From Bacillota bacterium (GTDB lineage: Bacteria > Bacillota > Desulfotomaculia > Desulfotomaculales > Desulfotomaculaceae): a stretch of DNA of 64,000 nt. The stretch spans positions 6,270 through 70,269 of the forward strand of contig JBFMCH010000065.1 in the NCBI GenBank assembly GCA_040754595.1. The letters are read 5' to 3'. This document shows positions 2,470 to 13,524 of the stretch, one piece after another. The position numbers were made by a program, and so were the translations under genes. Position 1 is the first letter of the stretch, and each line of letters begins with the position of its first letter. The notes under the pieces were generated by a model. The model made no database searches. It was given only the letters and a program-made list of their open reading frames with translations, and had not been told where the DNA came from.

Positions 2470-2770
2470 AGAATTCATTGATGAGAGAGGGGGTGGCGAA
2501 AAGAAGTTCAGGAAGATGAACCTTGGTTGTTTTTCGGAAGAAATGTACGTTTGAACTGTTTTCAGAGACGCGATTATGCATGACATGTACCTGCTGAAGG
2601 ATTTACAGAAGACTTATTCCAACAAGTTAACCGGTTGATCATGAAATGTTCAAGCACATTTGGTATAAAACTAACTTGGGAAGCACTTTGTTTCACAAAC
2701 AAGCAAACGAAGCAGCGTATTCTTTACAGCACCTTGTCTTTAACTAAATTGATCTTTGGGGGCTATCGTT

Positions 2771-4492
2771 ATGAACATTTTAAAGTACGTACCGATCTTG
2801 GATACCTTAAAGAACTACGATAAGCGGGACTTTCGATTTGATTTAATCGCTGCGCTTACCGTAGCAGTGGTCGCTCTGCCGCAAACCATGGCCTACGCCA
2901 TGATTGCCGGTGTCCACCCGGCTTACGGCCTGTATTCGGGGATTGTCCTTACCATCATCGCATCTTCCTTCGGCAGTTCCCACCAACTGGCCACCGGGCC
3001 CACCAACGCCATTTCTCTGCTCATTGCAGCTTACATGGTGCCCTTTGTGGGGCAGGATAATTTCTTTGCCAACCTGTTCTTACTGACCTTTCTGGTGGGC
3101 GCCATCCAGTTTTTAATGGGTGTGTTACGGCTGGGTTCCCTGGTCAACTATGTATCCCACGCAGTTATCGTAGGCTTTACCGCCGGCGCCGGTATTATCA
3201 TTGCCATGGGACAGCTCAACAACCTGATGGGGATCAAGCTGCCCCAGGGGCATCTTTCCAGTATCGATAAAGTGGTCGCCTGTTTCCAAAACATTGATAA
3301 AATGAACTACGTTGCCTTTGGCATCGGACTCTTTACCATTGCGATCATCCTGATCTGCAGAAGGATTAATAAAAACCTGCCCGGTGCGTTATTGGGGGTC
3401 ATTTTCTCGGTCATTTTGGTGATGGTCCTGGGGCTGGAAAAATACGGTGTAAAAGTGGTCGGGAAAATTCCCCAGGCCGTTCCACCTTTCAGCATGCCCA
3501 ATTTTAATCCTTCAGCCATTGCTGATTTAGGCACCGGGGCGCTGGTCATTGCCATTATCGGGCTGGTGGAGGCGGTATCCATCTCCAAGGCCATTGCCTC
3601 CAAAACACTGCAAAAAATCGACCCCAACCAGGAGTTTATCGGCCAGGGCATGGCCAACATGGGCGGCGCCTTCCTAAGCAGTATTGCGGGTTCCGGTTCC
3701 TTCACCCGTTCGGCCATCACCTACCAGAACGGGGGCAGAACCAGGCTGTCCGGGGTGCTGGTGGGTTTCATCATTCTGCTGGTATTAATCTTCTTTGCAC
3801 CCTTTGCCAGGTATATCCCCAATGCTAGTCTGGCCGGGGTCATCATGGTGGTGGCTTATTCCATGATTGACAAGAAGGCCCTGGTGAAAGTGTTGAAAAC
3901 CAACCGCAATGATGCCGTTGTATTGCTGGTAACCATGCTAACCACCATCTTTGCGCCTGAACTGGAACAGGCCATTTACGCCGGTGTGGCCATTTCTCTG
4001 ATCCTCTATCTGAAAGACTCCGGCGTGGCCAGCGTGAAAACCCTGGCTCCCGTCAGAGCCAGTGACGGGAGATTTGTGGAGCAGACCATTAACGGCGAGA
4101 GTCCCTCCATTGCCATTTTCCAACTGGAAGGCAACCTTTATTTCGGCTCTGCTTCCGATTTGGAAAAGAAGCTAACGGATAATTATTCGGATTCCCAGGT
4201 ATTTCTGATCCGTTTTAAAGGTGTTTCGGTGATCGACATTACTGCCCTGGAGGTTATTGAGGCCTTCATTAACAGGGCCCTGGGTGGTAACAAGAGAGTC
4301 ATGATGTCAGGTGTTACACCGAAAATCTATAAAATGCTGGAGAAAATGCACATTGTTGATCACGTGGGCAAAGACAATATCTTTATGGAAGATGATGAAG
4401 TATTCGCCACTTCCGGCAAAGCCCTGGACGAAGCCAGTTCCTTTGTACGTAATGTCAGCTACAGCTCGCAGGAAAGAGCTGTCCAGGCATAA
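2771..4492 (+). CDS. SulP/SLC26 family anion permease with C-terminal STAS domain
   Basis: DLIAALTVAVVALPQTMAYA, GLYS, ATGPT, PNQEFIGQG, GSFTRSA motifs; LEGNLYFGSA STAS; ATG 2771 chosen over TTG 2756. Confidence 0.92.
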   Translation: MNILKYVPILDTLKNYDKRDFRFDLIAALTVAVVALPQTMAYAMIAGVHPAYGLYSGIVLTIIASSFGSSHQLATGPTNAISLLIAAYMVPFVGQDNFFANLFLLTFLVGAIQFLMGVLRLGSLVNYVSHAVIVGFTAGAGIIIAMGQLNNLMGIKLPQGHLSSIDKVVACFQNIDKMNYVAFGIGLFTIAIILICRRINKNLPGALLGVIFSVILVMVLGLEKYGVKVVGKIPQAVPPFSMPNFNPSAIADLGTGALVIAIIGLVEAVSISKAIASKTLQKIDPNQEFIGQGMANMGGAFLSSIAGSGSFTRSAITYQNGGRTRLSGVLVGFIILLVLIFFAPFARYIPNASLAGVIMVVAYSMIDKKALVKVLKTNRNDAVVLLVTMLTTIFAPELEQAIYAGVAISLILYLKDSGVASVKTLAPVRASDGRFVEQTINGESPSIAIFQLEGNLYFGSASDLEKKLTDNYSDSQVFLIRFKGVSVIDITALEVIEAFINRALGGNKRVMMSGVTPKIYKMLEKMHIVDHVGKDNIFMEDDEVFATSGKALDEASSFVRNVSYSSQERAVQA

Positions 4493-4670: not shown

Positions 4671-4833
4671 AATGCTTCATAAAATTGAGATAAGTAATTG
4701 TATGATATAGATAGCAGGAGATAAATAGAAATATCTTACTTGAATGAAGCTGTACAAAATTTCACGTAACAGTTATTTTAAGACAAAGCAAAATGTCACC
4801 TCGTTTTGCAATGTTTAAAAATGTTGGGCAGAC

Positions 4834-4918
4834 AAGGTGCGAAGGAAGACTTGGCATTGGGTAGGCCGGCACAGTGTACGGAGATTTTTCCGCGCGCGTG
4901 TGCTGGCCTTTTCGTTTC
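4834..4918 (+). ncRNA. Candidate riboswitch/attenuator leader, copy L0
   Basis: AAGGTGCGAAG-gaaga-CTTGGCATTGGGTAGGCC overlaps terminator stem AGGCCGGCACA(4863-4873)/TGTGCTGGCCT(4899-4909) followed by a U-tract. Confidence 0.55.
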
Positions 4919-4948
4919 GGCCACAGTATAGATTAAGGGGGTAGAAAA

Positions 4949-5224
4949 ATGTACGGAACCTCTAAGTGCGGCAAATGTGCCAACAAGGAAACCTGTGAAA
5001 TTCGGTTGCACCTCGGCAGCATCATCCAAGAAGCCATCAAGAATGCGGAAACGGAAGTAAAACGCCTGGCGCCCAAGGAAATTGACTATATGATTTTGAC
5101 GGACATTTCGGTGATTCCCACCCGCTGCGAGAACTATGTAAGTCTGGACGGTTTGAAAGAAGAACAAAGTGAAAGGGAAAGTTTGTTTTTCCTGGGCAGA
5201 TCCCTGGCGCCTACGGCCATATAA
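4949..5224 (+). CDS. Hypothetical 91-aa protein with CxxC-x5-C...C motif
   Basis: RBS GGGGG, CGKCANKETC plus a distal Cys, followed by a terminator. Confidence 0.7.
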   Translation: MYGTSKCGKCANKETCEIRLHLGSIIQEAIKNAETEVKRLAPKEIDYMILTDISVIPTRCENYVSLDGLKEEQSERESLFFLGRSLAPTAI

Positions 5225-5246: not shown

Positions 5247-5275
5247 GCTCCTGACAAATCAGGGGCTTTTTATTT
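5247..5275 (+). terminator. Intrinsic terminator
   Basis: GCTCCTGA-caaa-TCAGGGGC-TTTTTATTT. Confidence 0.7.
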
Positions 5276-5523
5276 GACAAAGGGACTCTTTAAACCGCCA
5301 ATTTCAATGCTATCAGGAGTAGTCAGTAGTGACAAAAAAATTTATTCCCGTGGAAACATGAGCAGAAGGGCAATTGTGAGAGTACAAGTGCTGAAAATCA
5401 CAAAAACAAGGAAATATCGCCCTGTACAATAATTTCTTGTTTTATTACGCTAATAGCACAATGACAGAACAATTTGTCAATAAGGGAGTTTAACGGTTGT
5501 CATAAAAGACAGGGGGCTGGTTT

Positions 5524-5886
5524 ATGTCACAGTCCGCAATGGAAAAACGCATATGCGATGAATTTATCAAGTTCCAGAGAGAACTCGTTGGGCGGGGACC
5601 GGAGTGTACCAGGGTAATGATCTGCCGGGATATGGTGATCATCCGGTCAACCGGCGTCCTGACCAAGGAGGAAAAACATGTGAGCGGAACTCGCAAGGGC
5701 AGATCTCTGGTAAAGCAATTAAGAATGGAGTTAAGAGAAACGTACATTGAACGAATCGAAGACGTTATCCGGGAGATTACACAGTGCAAAGTCATGAGCA
5801 GCCATGGGGATATCAGTATCAGAACCGGTGAACATATCGAAGTCTTTATCCTGGATGCCGATTTGGAAAAAAAGTTTAGAAGATAA
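5524..5886 (+). CDS. DUF2294 / MpsC-like family protein (copy 1)
   Basis: KFQRELVGRGPE...DMVIIRSTGVLTKEEK...LVKQLR...ITQCKVMSSHGDISIRTGEHIEVFIL is typical of DUF2294. Confidence 0.85.
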   Translation: MSQSAMEKRICDEFIKFQRELVGRGPECTRVMICRDMVIIRSTGVLTKEEKHVSGTRKGRSLVKQLRMELRETYIERIEDVIREITQCKVMSSHGDISIRTGEHIEVFILDADLEKKFRR

Positions 5887-5912
5887 CCGGCAGGTTGAAT
5901 TCTTGTTTGATG

Positions 5913-6045
5913 AAGCTGCAAGGGTTCGCGTTGTCGGATCTCTGAAAGGTTGGTAGGCCTTACACAAAGCTGAACCTTGGTGTTGGTAGACCAGCGTTAT
6001 CAATGGGCAGGAAACTGCTTGATTGGTCGCTGGTCTTTTTATTTT
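5913..6045 (+). ncRNA. Candidate riboswitch/attenuator leader, copy L1
   Basis: GCAAGG...CCTTGGTGTTGGTAGACC overlaps terminator AGACCAGCG(5988-5996)/CGCTGGTCT(6028-6036) with a GAAA tetraloop and U-tract. Confidence 0.6.
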
Positions 6046-6161
6046 CACCGGAAGGGGGTGGGTTACCGGCAGGATTGATTTTTCAAGAACTGCCTTGTTT
6101 ACACTACTATAAACATAAGCAAGCACCTTAGTGAAAAAAAGAAAGAGAGAGGTGTGGTAGG

Positions 6162-7613
6162 ATGAACAAAAACAGTAAGCGTATTTTCTTTATATTATTG
6201 GGGTTAGGTTTGTTTTTAGCGCTTTATTTTGCTCCCCAATTCGGTCCTGCTGTGGACCCGTCCGGAAAAGCCTTTGAATTGTCTCAGGAAGGTAAGGCAG
6301 CCATTGGCTTATTCCTGCTGGCAGGTATTTGGTGGGTCTTTGAAGTGACCCCCATCGGTGTCACCAGTATTGCCATCGGTGTTTTCCAGGCCTTATTTTT
6401 CATTCGTCCGGCCAAGGATGCTTTCCGTGATTTTATGGATCCCACGGTCATGTTTATTTTAGGTTCCCTATTGATCGGTTTAGCATTTACCAAGGCCGGC
6501 GTCACCAAGAGAATCGCCTATAAAATGTTGGATGTGGTCGGTGAAGATACCCGGAAGATTTTATTAGGGGTATTTGTCGTAACGGCATTATTAACCCACA
6601 TTATGGCCCATACGGCGGTAGCCGCCACCATGTTCCCGATTTTGGTCGCCATCCTGGCCCTTTACGGCGAAAACTCCGACGGCAGGCCCACCAAGTTCGG
6701 TAAGGCTTTGTTTATCGGGATGGCCTATACGGCTGGTGCGGGCAGTATCTGTACCCTGCTGGGCGGCGCCCGTAACCCCGCGGCGGTTGGTTTCTATAAG
6801 GAATTTACCGGGATTGACGTATCCTTTATTGAATTCACCACCCACCTGGCCCCTTTTGGCTGGGCAGCGGTTTTACTGGTCTGGGCTTTACTGCTGGTTA
6901 TCTACAAACCTGAAAAAACCAAGATTCCCGGCTTACGGGAAAAGGCTCGTGCCGAATATGCCAAACTGGGACCTGTCAGCAAGCAAGAGATTTTCGTTGG
7001 CATTGTCGTCTTCTGTGCTTTGACCATGCTTGTGCTGCAGGCAATTATTCCCGCCTTAAAAACCATGGACCGTTCTGTTCCGCTGCTGGCTGCAGGATTA
7101 CTGTTCTTCCTCTCGAATATACTGACAGTGGAAGACTTGGAGAAGAAAATTCCCTGGAACATCGTCCTGCTGTTCTCCGGCGCCATGAGTATTGGTTTCT
7201 GCCTGTGGAAAACCGGCGCTGCTCAATGGATTGCCGTTAAGTGGCTGGCGATGCTGGTAAATGCTCACTGGCTGGTATTTGTACTGGGGATCTGTTTCCT
7301 GGTGCTGATCATGACCAACTTTATCATGAACGTGGCGGCCATTGCCATCACCTTGCCCGTGGCCCTGGTCATTGCCAAATACTTAGGAGTCAACCCTGAA
7401 TTGATTTTGTACGGCGCTACCGCTATGGCCGGGATGCCCTTCCTGCTGCTGATCGGCGCCGCTCCAAACGCCATGGCCTACGAGTCCAAACAATTTACCA
7501 CCGGTGAATTCTTTATGACCGGTATTCCCGCCAGTGCCATGATTCTCTGCCTCCTGGTCTTGATGACCTTTACCTACTGGCCTTTGATCGGCATGTCAGC
7601 GCTGATTAAATAG
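6162..7613 (+). CDS. DASS/SLC13 family Na+:anion symporter (copy 1)
   Basis: Polytopic membrane protein; AHTAVAATMFP, TLLGGARNPAA, IPWNIVLLFSGAMS, NFIMNVAA, LIGAAPNAMAY are SLC13-type motifs. Confidence 0.88.
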   Translation: MNKNSKRIFFILLGLGLFLALYFAPQFGPAVDPSGKAFELSQEGKAAIGLFLLAGIWWVFEVTPIGVTSIAIGVFQALFFIRPAKDAFRDFMDPTVMFILGSLLIGLAFTKAGVTKRIAYKMLDVVGEDTRKILLGVFVVTALLTHIMAHTAVAATMFPILVAILALYGENSDGRPTKFGKALFIGMAYTAGAGSICTLLGGARNPAAVGFYKEFTGIDVSFIEFTTHLAPFGWAAVLLVWALLLVIYKPEKTKIPGLREKARAEYAKLGPVSKQEIFVGIVVFCALTMLVLQAIIPALKTMDRSVPLLAAGLLFFLSNILTVEDLEKKIPWNIVLLFSGAMSIGFCLWKTGAAQWIAVKWLAMLVNAHWLVFVLGICFLVLIMTNFIMNVAAIAITLPVALVIAKYLGVNPELILYGATAMAGMPFLLLIGAAPNAMAYESKQFTTGEFFMTGIPASAMILCLLVLMTFTYWPLIGMSALIK

Positions 7614-7694
7614 CACCCCATCTCTGATACACCTGGAGCTGCCAGGTGTATCAGAAATTTGTCCTATTTCATTTAACGAGCGAGGGGATACATT

Positions 7695-8978
7695 GTGGAA
7701 GCAAACAGCCAGGTTATTTTTGCCACAGCGGTGTTTTTAATCACCTATGCCGTTATTATTTCGGAAAAGATTCACCGGGCGGTGATTGCGCTCCTGGGGG
7801 CCATGGTCATTATCCTGGGAGGCGTACTCCATCAGGAAAAAGCGGTAGAAGCGGTTGATTTCAACACCATTGGCCTGCTGGTAGGCATGATGATTATCGT
7901 AGGTGTTGCCAGAAATTCCGGTGTCTTCGAGTATCTTGCGGTCTGGGCTGCTAAAAGGAGTAAGGGTGAGCCGCTGGCCATTTTGGTATCTTTATCCGTC
8001 ATTACAGCCTGTTTGTCCGCTCTTCTTGATAACGTAACAACCGTTTTGTTGATTGTGCCCGTAACCTTTTCCATTGCCAGGGCACTGGAAATTAACCCCA
8101 GCCCCATTTTGATCTCAGAAGTTTTGGCATCCAACATCGGCGGAACCGCAACACTCATTGGTGATCCCCCGAATATTATGATTGGTTCTGCCACCGGCTT
8201 GGGGTTTATGGACTTTGTGATTAATCTTACACCGGTCATTATTGTGATTATGGCAGTTACAGTCGTTCTCCTTAAGATGATTTATCGAAAACAGTTGATT
8301 GTACGGGAAGAATTAAAGCAAAACATTATGGATTTAAACCCGGAAAACGAAATTAAAGACCCGGTATTGTTAAAGAAATCTTTGTTTGTCATCGCTTTAA
8401 CCATTGGTGGCTTTTTACTGCACCAGTACGTTCACCTGGAATCGGCTACCATCGCCCTGGGGGGGGCGGCCCTTTTACTTTTAATTACCGGTGATGATCC
8501 GGAGCATGCCCTGGCAGCCGTTGAGTGGCCCGTCATCTTCTTCTTCGCCGGACTGTTTATCCTGGTGGGCGGTCTGGAGGAAGTGGGGGTCATTGAATGG
8601 ATTGCCAGGGAGTCGCTGAAACTGACCGGGGGCGAATTGCTGCCCACCGGCATGTTAATCCTGTGGTTATCAGCCATTGCCTCGGCCTTTGTGGATAACA
8701 TTCCCTTTGTGGCCACCATGATCCCGTTAATTCAGGAAATGGGCAGGTTGGGCGGCATTGCCGACCTGAACCCGCTCTGGTGGTCTTTATCCCTGGGTGC
8801 TTGCCTGGGCGGCAACGGCACCATTATCGGCGCATCTGCCAACGTTGTGGTGGCCGGCATGGCAGAGAAGCGTGGCGTTAAGTGGACTTTCGTCGGTTTT
8901 ATGAAAGTGGCCTTTCCTCTTATGCTTGTTTCTGTCGTTATTTCAACTGTCTACCTGTATTTCTTCTTTTTAACCTAA
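7695..8978 (+). CDS. ArsB/NhaD family (ion transporter superfamily) permease (copy 1)
   Basis: SALLDNVTTVLL, SNIGGTATLIGDPPNIMI, SAFVDNIPF, GACLGGNGTIIGASAN. Confidence 0.88.
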   Translation: MEANSQVIFATAVFLITYAVIISEKIHRAVIALLGAMVIILGGVLHQEKAVEAVDFNTIGLLVGMMIIVGVARNSGVFEYLAVWAAKRSKGEPLAILVSLSVITACLSALLDNVTTVLLIVPVTFSIARALEINPSPILISEVLASNIGGTATLIGDPPNIMIGSATGLGFMDFVINLTPVIIVIMAVTVVLLKMIYRKQLIVREELKQNIMDLNPENEIKDPVLLKKSLFVIALTIGGFLLHQYVHLESATIALGGAALLLLITGDDPEHALAAVEWPVIFFFAGLFILVGGLEEVGVIEWIARESLKLTGGELLPTGMLILWLSAIASAFVDNIPFVATMIPLIQEMGRLGGIADLNPLWWSLSLGACLGGNGTIIGASANVVVAGMAEKRGVKWTFVGFMKVAFPLMLVSVVISTVYLYFFFLT

Positions 8979-9017
8979 TCATCTGGCAATCTCAGGTATT
9001 AGGGGAGTGATGTCCTC

Positions 9018-9461
9018 TTGGAAGTACCGGATATTCTAAATGCGCCGGCGAAACGCGGCAAGCATAATCATGAGGCCAACCTGGGGATTGTACTAAGGGA
9101 ACTGAGGGACAGCACTCAGGCAGGAGGGGTAACTCTCCAGCACCTGGTAAATGTATGTGGAGTCAGTAAGCGCCACATTTACCGTTATTTGAAAGAATTG
9201 GAGGAGATGGGTGTACCCATAGAAAGGCCGCAGATTATCCAACCGGGCAAGTTGGGCGTGGGGCGCTATAAATTAAAGGACAGTCAGGCCAATGAAGCGA
9301 TGGGTGAGACCATGCTGCTGGCGGCTTTAAATCAAATGCTGGAACGGTGCCATATTTACCACAATCAGATGGTGTTTTTAAAGGGTGTCATTGTTCAGAG
9401 CATGGCCATCCGTTACGGATTTAAGCTGCCACCGCATCTGATGATGCAGGGGGAACAGTAA
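9018..9461 (+). CDS. HTH regulator, short paralogue of the 1657-2469 N-terminus
   Basis: NLGIVLRELR..QAGGVTLQHLVNVCGVSKRHIYRYLKEL vs NLEIVLKELR..DQGGVSLEYLALACGVSTRQIYRYLREL. Confidence 0.75.
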   Translation: MEVPDILNAPAKRGKHNHEANLGIVLRELRDSTQAGGVTLQHLVNVCGVSKRHIYRYLKELEEMGVPIERPQIIQPGKLGVGRYKLKDSQANEAMGETMLLAALNQMLERCHIYHNQMVFLKGVIVQSMAIRYGFKLPPHLMMQGEQ

Positions 9462-9492
9462 TCTCAAAAATTTAATGAAAGTGTTAGAACGG

Positions 9493-9530
9493 AACCCTTT
9501 CTCGGATTGCTGAGAAAGGGTTTGTTTTTG
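9493..9530 (+). terminator. Intrinsic terminator
   Basis: AACCCTTTCTCGG-attg-CTGAGAAAGGGTT-TGTTTTT. Confidence 0.75.
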
Positions 9531-9877
9531 TTAAGAAAATCTTAAAGTTGCGAAACAAACATTAATATGAAGAAAGACTGAGTTATTTTACAAGAAACAC
9601 AGGTGCAAGTAAATATATCGGGCTGTACAGAATTAATTTAAATCTGTACTTTAGAGACACAAAAGTTTGTCATTACACGACATTAGATTTTTGTCACAAA
9701 AGACAAGACCTTATTCAGTTGTGCGTTGAGATAAATGGAGAAATTTTTTGACATACCATGAGGAGGTTTGTGTTTATCGTAACAAACTTTTGCCTGCAAC
9801 TCCGAGCACCCTTTTGACACAAAGCACCTGACCGATAAGCCTGTATTTGGAATTCAAACTGAAAAGGGGGAGGGTAC

Positions 9878-10246
9878 TTGAGCCAGCAGACATTACTGGA
9901 AAAACAAATATGCGAGGCCTTTATAAAATTCCAACGGGAACTGGTGGGGCGGGGACCGGAAACCACAAAGGCCATGATTTGCCGGGATATGGTGATTGTC
10001 CGTTCCAAAGGGGTCCTGACCAAAGAAGAAAAACATGTCAGCAGCACCCGGAAAGGCAGATCCCTGGTGAAGCAGCTAAGAATGGAGCTTCGAGAGTCTT
10101 ACCTGGAGCAAATTGAAAACATGGTTGCTGACCTAACCAAATGCCAGGTTGTCAGCAGTCACGGGGACATCAGTATCCGAACAGGGGAGCAAATAGAAGT
10201 TTTTATCTTAAACACAGACTTAGAAAGAAAAATAAAAACAAACTAA
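9878..10246 (+). CDS. DUF2294 / MpsC-like family protein (copy 2)
   Basis: Closely similar to 5524-5886; TTG start with GGGGAGG RBS. Confidence 0.85.
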   Translation: MSQQTLLEKQICEAFIKFQRELVGRGPETTKAMICRDMVIVRSKGVLTKEEKHVSSTRKGRSLVKQLRMELRESYLEQIENMVADLTKCQVVSSHGDISIRTGEQIEVFILNTDLERKIKTN

Positions 10247-10264
10247 CTGGCCTGAGACTTGGAT

Positions 10265-10390
10265 AAGGTCGCAGGCGAGTTAATAGGGTGGAATGTTGGT
10301 AGACCGGATGCGAAGCCGTAAGGCTTGGTATAAAGTAAACCAACGTTATCTTGGTTCATGATGGCCAAAATAGCGTTGGTTTTATTTTTT
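10265..10390 (+). ncRNA. Candidate riboswitch/attenuator leader, copy L2
   Basis: AAGGTCGCAGG...GTTGGTAGACC...GCGAAGCC-gtaa-GGCTTGGTATAAAGTAAACC overlaps terminator AACCAACGTTA(10338-10348)/TAGCGTTGGTT(10371-10381) followed by a U-tract. Confidence 0.6.
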
Positions 10391-10542
10391 GAGGGAGGGG
10401 AGGGCTGTACCCGGGCTCAGTCGCACGCAGCATCAGTAACAGCTTTACATACAGCACCTTTTACCGCTTCGTGAGTTGGAAGAAAAAATAAATGAGTGTT
10501 ATAACGTTAAGCACCTTTATTATTTTAGTCGAGGTGATTGCT

Positions 10543-11991
10543 ATGAGTAGTGAAGTAAAACGGTATTTCTTTGTGGTTCTCGGATTTGCTGCATTGTTAT
10601 TATTTTATTTTATGCCGTCCCTGGACCCTGCGGTGGACCCCATGGGCAAAAGCTTTGAACTTACACAGGCCGGTAAAGCCGGTCTGGGGCTGTTCCTGTT
10701 AGCAGGGATCTGGTGGGTTTTTGAAGTGGTTCCCATTGGTGTAACCAGTATTGCCATCGGCATTTTACAACCTGTATTTGGCATTCGTCCTGCAAAAGAA
10801 GCGTTTCGGGATTTTATGGACCCCACAGTCATGTTTATTTTAGGTTCACTGCTGGTAGGGCTTGCCTTTACCCAGTGCGGCATTACCAAAAGGATCGCCT
10901 ATAAGATGCTGGTGATTGTCGGCGAAGACACCAGAAAGATTTTGCTGGGTGTTTTTGTCCTGACAGCGCTGTTAACTCACGTCATGGCTCATACCGCTGT
11001 AGCAGGCACCATGTTTCCCATCTTGATGTCCATTTTGGCGCTGTATGGCGCTGAAGCGGGGAAGCCCAGTAAATTCGGTAAAGCACTGTTTATCGGCATG
11101 GCCTTTGCCGCCGGTGCGGGCAGTATTTGCACGTTGATGGGCGGGGCCCGGAACCCTGCAGCTGTCGGCTTCTTTAAAGAATTTACAGGACAGGATGTCA
11201 GCTTTTTAGAATTTTCCGCAGCCCTGGCGCCCTTTGGCTGGGCCAGCGTTTTTATGGTGTTCTTCTTAATGATTACCCTTTTTAAGCCTGAGAAACTACA
11301 GGTGCCCGGTCTACGCCAGCGCGCCCAGAACGAATTGGATAAATTAGGTCCCATTACCAAACAGGAAATTTTTGTACTTAGCGTGGTTACCATTGCCCTG
11401 TGCACCTTAATTTTCCAAAAGTTTATCCCGGCACTGAAGGGTATGGACCGGTCCGTGCCTTTGCTGGCAGCAGGCTTAATCTTCTTTATTACGAAGGTGC
11501 TTACTGTAAAAGAACTGGAAAAATCCATCCCCTGGAACATCATGCTGCTGTTCTCCGGGGCTATGAGTATCGGTTTTGCTCTATGGCAAACCGGGGCTGC
11601 CGAATGGATGGCTGTCAGCTGGCTATCCCTCATTAAAGATGCCCCCTGGTTGGTGTTCCTGCTAGGTATTTCCTTCCTGGTACTTATTTTAACAAACTTT
11701 ATTATGAACGTAGCGGCCATTTCCATTTGTCTGCCCGTCGCTCTGGTTATTGCCAAATACCTGGGCGTAAACCCGGAAATCGTTCTGTACTCTTCCGTAG
11801 CCATGTCTGGGATGCCTTTCCTGCTGTTGATCGGCGCCGCTCCCAATGCCATTGCTTACGAGTCCAGGCAATTTACCACCGGTGAGTTCTTTGTCACCGG
11901 TATCCCGGCAAGTTTAGCCATTCTCGCCATGGTGGCAATCTTCTCCTTAACCTTCTGGCCCATTATCGGCATTCCTGCTGTTCTTCACTAA
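10543..11991 (+). CDS. DASS/SLC13 family Na+:anion symporter (copy 2)
   Basis: Paralogue of 6162-7613; start ATG 10543 with GAGGTG RBS preferred over 10492. Confidence 0.88.
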   Translation: MSSEVKRYFFVVLGFAALLLFYFMPSLDPAVDPMGKSFELTQAGKAGLGLFLLAGIWWVFEVVPIGVTSIAIGILQPVFGIRPAKEAFRDFMDPTVMFILGSLLVGLAFTQCGITKRIAYKMLVIVGEDTRKILLGVFVLTALLTHVMAHTAVAGTMFPILMSILALYGAEAGKPSKFGKALFIGMAFAAGAGSICTLMGGARNPAAVGFFKEFTGQDVSFLEFSAALAPFGWASVFMVFFLMITLFKPEKLQVPGLRQRAQNELDKLGPITKQEIFVLSVVTIALCTLIFQKFIPALKGMDRSVPLLAAGLIFFITKVLTVKELEKSIPWNIMLLFSGAMSIGFALWQTGAAEWMAVSWLSLIKDAPWLVFLLGISFLVLILTNFIMNVAAISICLPVALVIAKYLGVNPEIVLYSSVAMSGMPFLLLIGAAPNAIAYESRQFTTGEFFVTGIPASLAILAMVAIFSLTFWPIIGIPAVLH

Positions 11992-11998
11992 TACCCGT

Positions 11999-12083
11999 GA
12001 ACCCCTGGTTACAAAACCAGGGGTTCTTAAAATAAAATGTTTTTAATTCTCTCATTGTAATGACAAGGGAATGGCATTATAAT
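11999..12083 (+). promoter_or_regulatory. Hairpin (11999-12026) followed by sigmaA-type promoter TTGTAA-N17-TATAAT (12055-12083)
   Basis: GAACCCCTGGTT/AACCAGGGGTTC; -35/-10 at 17-bp spacing. Confidence 0.55.
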
Positions 12084-12138
12084 ACTCATTGGTGACATGC
12101 GTGGTAATACCTTTAATTTATTTGCAGAGGTGATGTAT

Positions 12139-13422
12139 GTGGAAGGAAACAGCCAGGTCATTTTAGCGACTACCATATTTTTGGTAGCCTATGCCATTAT
12201 CATTTCAGAAAAGATTCACCGTACCGTTGTCGCCCTTTTTGGGGCGATGATTCTGATTATTGCCGGTGTGCTGCACCAGGACGAGGCGATCCATCATATT
12301 GACTTTAATACCATCGGGTTGCTGGTAGGTATGATGATTATCGTGGGAATTACCAGACGTTCAGGGGTATTTGAGTATTTGGCCGTGAAAGCTGCCAAGC
12401 AAAGCAAAGGCGAACCACTGGCCATCATGGTGTCCTTGTCCATTGTTACTGCCGTTTTATCTGCACTGCTGGACAATGTTACCACGGTTCTTTTGATTGT
12501 TCCGGTTACTTTTTCCATTGCCCGGCAGCTGGAAATTAACCCCATGCCCATTTTAATTGCTGAAATTCTGGCGTCCAACATTGGCGGTACTGCCACCCTG
12601 GTTGGTGACCCGCCGAATATTATGATTGGTTCGGCCGTCGGCATCGGTTTTATGGACTTTGTTATCAATCTGACTCCCATTGTAGCTCCCATTATGATTG
12701 TTACAATTTACCTGCTAAAATGGATCTACAGGAAGCAGTTTGTGGTTCGGGAAGAGTTAAAGAAAAATATTTTGGCCATGAATGAAAATGACGAAATTAA
12801 AGATCCCAAACTTCTCAAGCAGTCTCTCATCGTGCTTGCTCTGACCGTGCTAGGCTTCTTATTACACCAGTATGTCCACTTGGAGTCTGCTACCATTGCT
12901 CTGGCGGGAGCGGCTCTGCTGCTGTTAGTGACGCGCCAGGAACCCGAGCATGCTTTAGAAGCGGTGGAATGGCCTGTGATCTTCTTTTTTGCCGGCCTGT
13001 TCATCCTGGTGGGCGGTCTGGTAGAAGTTGGGGTCATTGAGTGGATTGCGGTGCAAGCCCTTGAATTAACCGGGGGCGAATTGCTGACCACAGGGATGTT
13101 AATCCTCTGGCTGTCAGCCATTGCATCTGCCTTTGTTGATAACATCCCCTTTGTTGCGACCATGATCCCTCTTATTCAAGATATGGGACGTTTAGGTGGC
13201 ATTACCGATCTGATGCCCCTGTGGTGGTCCCTTTCCCTGGGTGCTTGCCTGGGCGGTAACGGTACCATTATCGGCGCTTCTGCGAACGTAGTTGTTGCCG
13301 GTATGGCCGAGAAACAGGGTATTCACTTTACCTTCTTAGGCTTTATGAAGGTTGCCTTCCCGCTCATGCTGGTATCCATCGTTATGTCCACGGTGTATTT
13401 GTACTTCTTCTACTTAACTTAA
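12139..13422 (+). CDS. ArsB/NhaD family permease (copy 2)
   Basis: Paralogue of 7695-8978; GTG 12139 with GAGGTG RBS aligns to the paralogue start (MEGNSQ vs MEANSQ). Confidence 0.88.
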   Translation: MEGNSQVILATTIFLVAYAIIISEKIHRTVVALFGAMILIIAGVLHQDEAIHHIDFNTIGLLVGMMIIVGITRRSGVFEYLAVKAAKQSKGEPLAIMVSLSIVTAVLSALLDNVTTVLLIVPVTFSIARQLEINPMPILIAEILASNIGGTATLVGDPPNIMIGSAVGIGFMDFVINLTPIVAPIMIVTIYLLKWIYRKQFVVREELKKNILAMNENDEIKDPKLLKQSLIVLALTVLGFLLHQYVHLESATIALAGAALLLLVTRQEPEHALEAVEWPVIFFFAGLFILVGGLVEVGVIEWIAVQALELTGGELLTTGMLILWLSAIASAFVDNIPFVATMIPLIQDMGRLGGITDLMPLWWSLSLGACLGGNGTIIGASANVVVAGMAEKQGIHFTFLGFMKVAFPLMLVSIVMSTVYLYFFYLT

Positions 13423-13524
13423 TTTTACCGGCTGTTGGCCCGGTGATATGCAAATATCGCCGGGCTATTATATTTCTCACCGTCCGGGGGACAAATAGTA
13501 ACAGAAACGAGGGAGGGAATAAAT

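Follow-up and report, generated by a model that had tools for sequence, protein, structure and literature searches.

We present a comparative analysis of a 64,000-nucleotide stretch of DNA, hereafter the window, from an assembly of the Desulfotomaculaceae (GCA_040754595.1, contig JBFMCH010000065.1, positions 6,270 to 70,269 of the forward strand), in which two co-directional modules follow one another, each comprising a gene of the MpsC (DUF2294) family, a leader RNA, a DASS permease gene and a CitMHS-type permease gene. MpsC and the leader together appear, from comparison across genomes, to form a widespread protein-plus-RNA switch, apparently undescribed; no Rfam 15 family and no publication covering it could be found. 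With slightly better than even confidence, MpsC is proposed to be a trans-acting regulator which, by a logic resembling that of HutP, sets the readthrough of the leader in an inorganic-carbon regulon. A further-reaching reading is put forward only tentatively, as one that could well fail: MpsC and its leader would be the CO2/bicarbonate-sensing switch of an unrecognised inorganic-carbon regulon of the Bacillota, and the DASS-CitMHS pair would be a new type of inorganic-carbon transporter, placed under the switch in Desulforamulus and standing beside a Cam-type gamma carbonic anhydrase in other Desulfotomaculia. To our knowledge, no function has been assigned to MpsC/DUF2294 since its naming in 2015.

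Both intergenic leaders of the modules (A and B) close with a covarying terminator hairpin and a U-run. Alignment of 11 Desulforamulus leaders revealed invariant blocks, and RNAalifold folded them into a hairpin, P1, followed by the terminator, with compensatory changes in both. The terminator 5' arm begins with bases complementary to the invariant 5' block GUUGGN, whose pairing with N'CCARC forms a helix, P0, followed by a conserved internal loop of purines (AG facing AG or AA) and then by P1. P0 and the terminator 5' arm use the same ACCA(A/G)C bases (ACCAGC at 5990-5995 in leader A). At full length the leaders adopt P1 plus terminator (-36.7, -37.7 and -44.2 kcal/mol); when truncated, they adopt P0 plus P1 (-19.3, -25.9 and -21.4 kcal/mol). 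Across 76 sequences both alternative structures covary far above shuffled and slid controls: for P1 plus terminator, pairing amounts to 92.6% and covariation to 0.663, against 0.25 for shuffled alignments (0 of 500 reach the observed value), and for P0 plus P1, pairing amounts to 83.6% and covariation to 0.542, against 0.218. Column 97 covaries with column 28 in P0 (AU 28, UA 22, CG 7) and also with column 207 in the terminator (AU 35, UA 24, GC 10), and this double covariation is the signature of alternative pairings. Strong conservation was further seen at the unpaired bases A30, G31, G83 and A94. As far as sequence can tell, the geometry of the leader is that of a protein-stabilised antiterminator. 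Rfam 15 gave 0 matches at the gathering threshold in the window and six other loci, permissive E-values returning only noise (<=22 bits), and no description of the leader RNA, of a DUF2294 function, of a bicarbonate/CO2 riboswitch or of an ndhF attenuator was found in the literature.

Two covariance models were built, R1 from the 11 Desulforamulus leaders and R2 from 36 R1-type matches. R1 found a third copy in the window (leader copy 3), which the earlier note had missed, and gave matches in distant Clostridia and Bacilli, situated immediately 3' of mpsC. For the three window leaders R1 gives 103.2, 102.7 and 42.8 bits, and R2 gives 68.9, 65.1 and 49.4 bits. The scores of the first two leaders are partly circular, as these leaders belong to the seed alignment, and copy 3 and about 60 non-Desulforamulus matches are independent of it. 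R2 matches 71 of the 78 MpsC loci fetched across Bacillota, and its matches with E<1e-3 all lie on the MpsC strand (87/87), either right after the mpsC stop codon or, in ndhF-dabA-canC-DUF6407-mpsC operons, ahead of ndhF. Two whole Bacillus genomes hold exactly one match apiece, at the mps locus. In a phylum sample of 150 genomes the leader was found in 13, every one of which has MpsC (background 50/150) and carries an RNA copy no more than about 500 nt away from mpsC, be it a gene or a remnant. In a sample of 150 Bacilli genomes it was found in 17, 16 of them with MpsC (background 80/150), and the lone MpsC-negative genome offers a weak 40-bit match. MpsC is thus present in 29 of 30 RNA-positive genomes, a count in which two genomes are shared by both samples (G069=G323, G110=G347) and kin are not independent. 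The earlier note on this DNA had placed DUF2294 upstream of a terminator in both modules and had suggested an anti-terminator or sensor role, looking to conservation of the pairing. The order mpsC, leader with intrinsic terminator, transporters holds in both modules, the pairing is conserved as just described, and the suggested role gains strong comparative support, the antiterminator/terminator RNA travelling with MpsC across the Bacillota.

Action in trans is argued for because some leaders have no adjacent mpsC, namely copy 3 of the window, which has a promoter region to itself and no MpsC immediately upstream, and extra copies in one further genome (G133); if MpsC acts on leader copy 3, it must do so in trans. 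Intact leaders were also observed beside mpsC remnants with stop codons (G079:C65:15890-16281 and G120:C1:24952-25273), with an intact mpsC elsewhere in the genome, which is consistent with action in trans. The tracking of RNA subtype with MpsC clade on the tree was not counted as independent evidence, since both also follow phylogeny and duplication history.

The neighbours of the 78 MpsC loci were classed by clustering and Pfam annotation. In 27-28 loci, all from Bacillaceae, the leader lies upstream of ndhF(mpsA)-dabA-canC-DUF6407-mpsC; about 20 show the order mpsC, leader, sbtA, sometimes then canC or a PII-like gene, and another order is mpsC, leader, purE, purK and, optionally, sbtA. A CO_dh-like gene with a 2-oxoacid:ferredoxin oxidoreductase follows mpsC and leader in 14 loci, NuoE/NuoF-like genes with a formate dehydrogenase (NAD-formate dehydrogenase) in 7, and MFS transporters are also among the leader-gated genes. 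As read from these annotations, the common theme is CO2/bicarbonate supply and use. In Staphylococcus aureus mpsA is 1.7-2.5-fold lower at 5% CO2 (PMC6689103), the ndhF-ybcCFHI genes of Bacillus subtilis form an i-modulon without a known regulator (10.1101/2020.04.26.062638), and a 2026 preprint states that the regulatory mechanism of CO2/bicarbonate uptake genes in Gram-positives 'remains to be explored' (10.64898/2026.09.08.750065). The conserved RNA partner opens both the function of MpsC and the regulation of Gram-positive CO2/bicarbonate uptake to direct test in B. subtilis.

MpsC takes its name from the MpsABC/DabAB systems (S. aureus, B. subtilis ndhF-ybcC, Halothiobacillus neapolitanus DAB). 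In Bacillaceae mpsC (ybcI) stands in the ndhF-dabA-canC operon, which carries the same leader, and is thus collocated with ndhF-dabA, unlike the statement that mpsC does not lie together with mpsAB outside staphylococci (PMC6689103). The genome under study has four MpsC genes and no DabA: PF10070 gave 0 matches in the window and in the whole 99.94%-complete genome, a B. subtilis control being positive, and a DabA with an NdhF-like partner, by which an MpsABC/DabAB system is recognised, was found neither in the locus nor in the genome. The uncoupling of DUF2294 from MpsAB that the earlier note had described is true for this genome, yet it is nothing unusual: only 27-28 of the 78 MpsC loci adjoin ndhF-dabA. 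MpsC_A and MpsC_B score 129.6 and 130.2 bits with PF10057 against a cut-off of 23, cover positions 3-110 and 4-110 of its 111, and retain every family-invariant residue of a 64-sequence alignment. The fourth MpsC/leader pair of the genome, canonical in type, lies on contig C45 in the order mpsC, leader, purE, purK, sbtA, oxidoreductase. A divergent, duplicated MpsC/leader pair and a canonical pair in one genome offer a natural case for the study of protein-RNA specificity.

In the proposed mechanism each module would be one operon, comprising a promoter, mpsC, a leader of about 120 nt, the DASS permease and the CitMHS-type permease. The leader would have two mutually exclusive folds, of which the long irregular hairpin (P0, purine loop, P1) would form first during transcription; once the 3' arm has been made, the terminator would be the more stable fold, and transcription would stop before the transporters unless P0/P1 were held. 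Since mpsC usually lies upstream of the terminator, MpsC would be made from that part of the transcript regardless of attenuation. It is the most likely factor to bind P0/P1 in trans and set readthrough, by the same logic as HutP or BglG/LicT, and it could equally promote termination. Where mpsC is the last gene of the gated operon, as is sometimes the case, it would be autoregulated. The signal is probably the inorganic-carbon status, because CO2/bicarbonate genes across the whole of the Bacillota are gated by this RNA, with an MpsC close by, and the DASS-CitMHS pair would then belong to a regulon of inorganic-carbon-linked anion transport. The anatomy, the covariation in the two folds, the co-occurrence of the RNA with MpsC and the spectrum of cargo are shown by the present data; that MpsC binds RNA, in which direction it regulates, what its effector is and which substrate the transporters carry are points that we infer.

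Conditional termination is a known regulatory principle, to which the MpsC family and the RNA motif are newcomers. In the hut operon of B. subtilis the regulator HutP is encoded by the first gene, followed by a terminator-containing leader and the structural genes, and this effector-activated small protein decides readthrough. The present modules share the regulator gene in first place and the terminator-containing leader between it and the structural genes. HutP, however, recognises spaced UAG triplets where the MpsC leader has the P0/P1 hairpin, the mpsC of the Bacillus mps operon stands at the end of the gated operon and not at its start, and between the two proteins there is no sequence relation (Pfam on MpsC gives PF10057 only) and no detectable fold relation. 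For BglG, LicT and SacY the ribonucleic antiterminator (RAT) is an irregular hairpin with conserved internal loops that overlaps the terminator 5' arm and is stabilised for readthrough. The MpsC leader likewise forms an irregular hairpin overlapping the terminator 5' arm, but MpsC is without CAT or PRD domains, and the Rfam bglG-cis-reg model reaches 15 bits on the leader against a gathering score of 80.

Further layers of control may accompany the leader. A conserved CACCU box 3' of each terminator can pair with the GAGGUG Shine-Dalgarno (SD) sequence of the DASS gene (6124-6154 and 10455-10535); the pairing is available in all Desulforamulus leaders, which also have a purine-rich GGAGG box after the U-run. 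This may be a translational layer, for which the fold energies are not significant. Upstream of MpsC_B (9625-9649, 9666-9696) GTACAGA-N11-TCTGTAC, a perfect inverted repeat, is conserved across species together with two TTTGTCA boxes, and similar TGTACA and TTTGTCA boxes precede MpsC_A (~5470-5515). Because these elements are probably an operator for a DNA-binding regulator, the operons may be under a second, promoter-level control.

With regard to the cargo of the modules, DASS_A satisfies the DASS subfamily model TIGR00785 (216.9 against a cut-off of 198.6) and DASS_B is 71% identical to it; their family includes the DASS/SLC13 members VcINDY and the bacterial sulfate DASS. The CitMHS-type permeases belong to the CitMHS/ArsB/NhaD branch, where only the general CitMHS Pfam family is matched above its cut-off: CitMHS_A falls below the equivalog cut-offs of MamN (226 against 500), ArsB (109 against 457) and NhaD (43.9 against 80), and both copies show a weaker ArsB/NhaB similarity. 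Among 162 genomes of the class the DASS-CitMHS pair is conserved in 66, at 62-77% identity, and only Desulforamulus has it behind mpsC and a leader. Outside this genus, CBS-domain genes and the gene of a hexapeptide protein lie next to the pair or between its two members, and so, once, does TauE. The best relatives of the hexapeptide protein are the gamma carbonic anhydrase domain of CcmM (3kwc, E 4e-37) and Cam (1qrf, 3e-36). By coordinates, 17 genomes of six families have a Cam/CcmM-type gamma carbonic anhydrase at a distance of 4 kb or less from the DASS orthologue; none was found in any Desulforamulus genome of the class set. This linkage provides, at the level of gene neighbourhood, an independent link of the pair to CO2/bicarbonate, and because of it the pair, as a new cargo of the leader, is a candidate inorganic-carbon transporter in anaerobic sulfate reducers. 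We know of no description of a conserved DASS-CitMHS pair that often has a CBS protein or gamma carbonic anhydrase encoded between or beside its two genes.

In the family f89, two conserved small proteins (153 and 107 aa) are encoded ahead of the DASS-CitMHS pair; they match no known family and may represent another regulatory cassette for these transporters. The 107-aa protein was rejected as a remote MpsC (hhalign probability 0.06%).

As the earlier note had it, the two modules are a tandem duplication with the same gene order and with paralogous, intact copies: MpsC, DASS and CitMHS are 74%, 71% and 81% identical between them and no frame breaks were found. Their closest relatives are in Desulforamulus putei (88-95% aa identity), D. 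aeronauticus and related assemblies, where the array reads HTH, SulP, (leader, 91-aa open reading frame), MpsC_A, DASS_A, CitMHS_A, HTH11, MpsC_B, DASS_B, CitMHS_B. In the phylogeny of both copies, which that note had called for, MpsC A and B form one clade (SH-aLRT support 100), as do CitMHS A and B (98). In the free DASS tree A and B fall beside different outgroup clades; an older DASS duplication was rejected, given that their monophyly is not rejected by the approximately unbiased (AU) test (p 0.54, the constrained tree being slightly better) and that the other two trees unite A with B. Because of these clades and the conservation of the array in the genus, the comparative evidence indicates that the whole module was duplicated once, in the ancestor of Desulforamulus, and that both copies have been kept since.

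Several observations weigh against MpsC as a carbon-responsive regulator of the leader. No RNA match was obtained in 37 of the 50 MpsC-positive genomes of the phylum sample and in 64 of the 80 of the Bacilli sample; the large scans used strict filters and do not establish absence of the RNA from these genomes, so that the missing matches may reflect those filters, or MpsC may often work without the leader RNA. A search of the MpsC model against the PDB with Foldseek gave no match at E<=0.001 to any solved structure, RNA-binding proteins included (best TM-scores 0.43-0.46 with E >0.02), and a profile search gave no sequence relative in the PDB (nothing below E 0.6). As the AlphaFold2 model of MpsC_A is confident (pLDDT 94) and without similarity to solved folds, the structure speaks neither for nor against RNA binding. 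No homology of MpsC to HutP or to CAT-PRD antiterminators was detected in the Pfam scan (E<=0.01, MpsC only), with Foldseek or in the PDB profile search; TRAPPC3/Bet3 and uL23, considered as fold relatives, were rejected at TM<0.5. Deletion of mpsC in S. aureus has no growth phenotype (PMC6689103). The MpsC A/B clade of Desulforamulus sits on a very long branch of 2.46 substitutions per site and its leaders have a distinct P1 sequence, owing to which its signal could differ from that of canonical MpsC. Lastly, sulfate transport is a further candidate role of DASS and SulP proteins in sulfate reducers (PMC5840216).

The long branch and the variant P1 speak at the same time for an alternative in which the mechanism is kept and MpsC A/B with their leaders have been re-purposed to another signal, the DASS-CitMHS pair importing sulfate for dissimilatory reduction or C4-dicarboxylates. 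Desulforamulus is a sulfate-reducing genus, DASS and SulP have been proposed as sulfate transporters in organisms of this kind (PMC5840216), TauE and CBS genes adjoin the pair in relatives, and the SulP neighbour is also DauA-like. Two facts argue otherwise, namely that in six families the pair stands near a Cam-type gamma carbonic anhydrase and that both MpsC copies retain every family-invariant residue, and re-purposing is regarded as conceivable but doubtful.

A stand-alone riboswitch, in which P0/P1 would bind a small ligand (bicarbonate or a metabolite of carboxylation shortage) and MpsC would only be a co-regulated accessory, is considered rather unlikely. The element is compact, has the conserved unpaired bases A30, G31, G83 and A94 together with a classic expression platform, and occurs without an adjacent mpsC in copy 3 and in G133. 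Its near confinement to MpsC genomes (29 of 30, the exception being weak) and its position next to mpsC, as gene or remnant, in each of the 13 RNA-positive genomes of the phylum sample nevertheless tie it to the protein, and mpsC, usually upstream of the terminator and hence outside the gated unit, occupies the place of a regulator and not that of a regulon member.

An action of MpsC on proteins is less probable still. MpsC would here modulate transporters as the PII-like SbtB does SbtA, which is likewise a small regulatory protein encoded beside a bicarbonate-type permease, and another factor would control the leader. The name of MpsC does come from a transporter operon and many of its neighbours are transporters (SbtA, DabAB, DASS, MFS). 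The cargo, however, includes soluble enzymes (PurEK, 2-oxoacid:ferredoxin oxidoreductase, formate dehydrogenase), some SbtA loci carry a PII-like gene of their own as well, and MpsC is dispensable for MpsAB transport activity in S. aureus (PMC6689103). SbtB has the transporter protein as its target, whereas MpsC has an RNA as its conserved partner, and because that RNA is its only constant partner across transporters and soluble enzymes, an SbtB-like role appears unlikely. That the hairpin and U-run simply end the mpsC transcript, with the transporters served by their own promoters and the leader similarity left over from duplication, is scarcely credible: promoter-like hexamers are indeed frequent here (19, where 14 would be expected), but P0, P1 and the terminator recur with compensatory changes in 76 sequences from distant Bacillota, and the leader is also found ahead of ndhF, without a preceding gene whose transcript it could end.

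The features of the array are collected in Table 1, in which L-numbers denote loci fetched for comparison.

Table 1 Features of the duplicated array in the window and of related loci (R1 and R2, covariance models of the leader)
Feature	Position	Strand	Details
SulP/STAS anion permease, BicA/DauA-like	2756..4492	+	Pfam Sulfate_transp and STAS; no leader ahead
Leader copy 3	4805..4922	+	R1 42.8 bits (E 2e-6), R2 49.4 bits; conserved in L007-L011; P0 5' strand ~4822-4827, P1 ~4836-4858, terminator ~4863-4909 and U-run
91-aa Cys-rich protein	4949..5224	+	Putatively gated by leader copy 3; then terminator 5247-5266
Module A	5524-8978	+	MpsC_A, 275-nt spacer with leader A, DASS_A, CitMHS_A
MpsC_A (DUF2294), candidate trans-acting regulator	5524..5886	+	PF10057 E 7e-38, 129.6 bits; upstream of terminator
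Leader A	5929..6049	+	P0 5' strand GUUGGU 5949-5954, P1 5962-5983, terminator 5988-6036 and U-run
DASS_A, sodium-coupled anion symporter family permease	6162..7613	+	TIGR00785 216.9 against cut-off 198.6; Pfam Na_sulph_symp
CitMHS_A, ion-transporter-superfamily permease, ArsB/NhaD/MamN-like	7695..8978	+	PF03600 350.9 bits
147-aa HTH_11-like protein between modules	9018..9461	+	Pfam HTH_11 24.6 bits, E 2.3e-5; then terminator 9492-9523
Module B	9878-13422	+	MpsC_B, spacer with leader B, DASS_B, CitMHS_B
MpsC_B	9878..10246	+	PF10057 E 4e-38, 130.2 bits; 74% identical to MpsC_A
Leader B	10276..10395	+	P0 5' strand 10292-10300, P1 10308-10331, P0 3' strand = terminator 5' arm 10339-10347, terminator to ~10388 and U-run
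DASS_B	10543..11991	+	Pfam Na_sulph_symp/DASS; first in-frame ATG 10492
CitMHS_B	12097..13422	+	Pfam CitMHS; then terminator 13436-13467
Gamma carbonic anhydrase beside or between DASS and CitMHS	L119:12469-13101, L120:12121-12708, L121:7864-8445, L095:2952-3497, L117:359-901		
f89 small-protein pair	L122:7605-8428		Same position in L098, L102-L107, L109, L111, L112

Among the neighbouring genes, the SulP gene is a conserved neighbour of the array, lying upstream of it in L007-L010, and its product scores below every NCBIfam cut-off tried (BicA, NF050096, 227.5 against 880; DauA 266.5 against 614; sulP 367.4 against 380.45). The 91-aa Cys-rich protein behind leader copy 3 is 49-90% identical across Desulforamulus with four conserved Cys, and no family was matched in Pfam or NCBIfam. 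The start of DASS_B is likely at 10543 and not at the first in-frame ATG, because the SD sequence GAGGTG is found there and homology to DASS_A begins there. Between DASS_A and CitMHS_A a perfect 14-bp hairpin without a U-run was observed (7623-7655), which could be a processing, stability or internal attenuation site.

An orphan canonical MpsC was observed on contig C96 of the same genome (G000, C96:1106-1465, L005), with no leader nearby; its neighbours are a ferredoxin-like gene, an HTH_11 paralogue, an FAD protein, a 466-aa protein and a TauE permease. The 147-aa HTH_11-like gene of the window, whose score is just under the 25-bit cut-off, is kept by synteny in all Desulforamulus arrays. 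HTH_11-like small proteins accompany MpsC genes three times in the genome under study, namely at 9018-9461, at 1657-2469 upstream of SulP with a WCX domain, and at L005:2513-2977 (-) beside the orphan MpsC, and they are candidates for the operator-binding factor.

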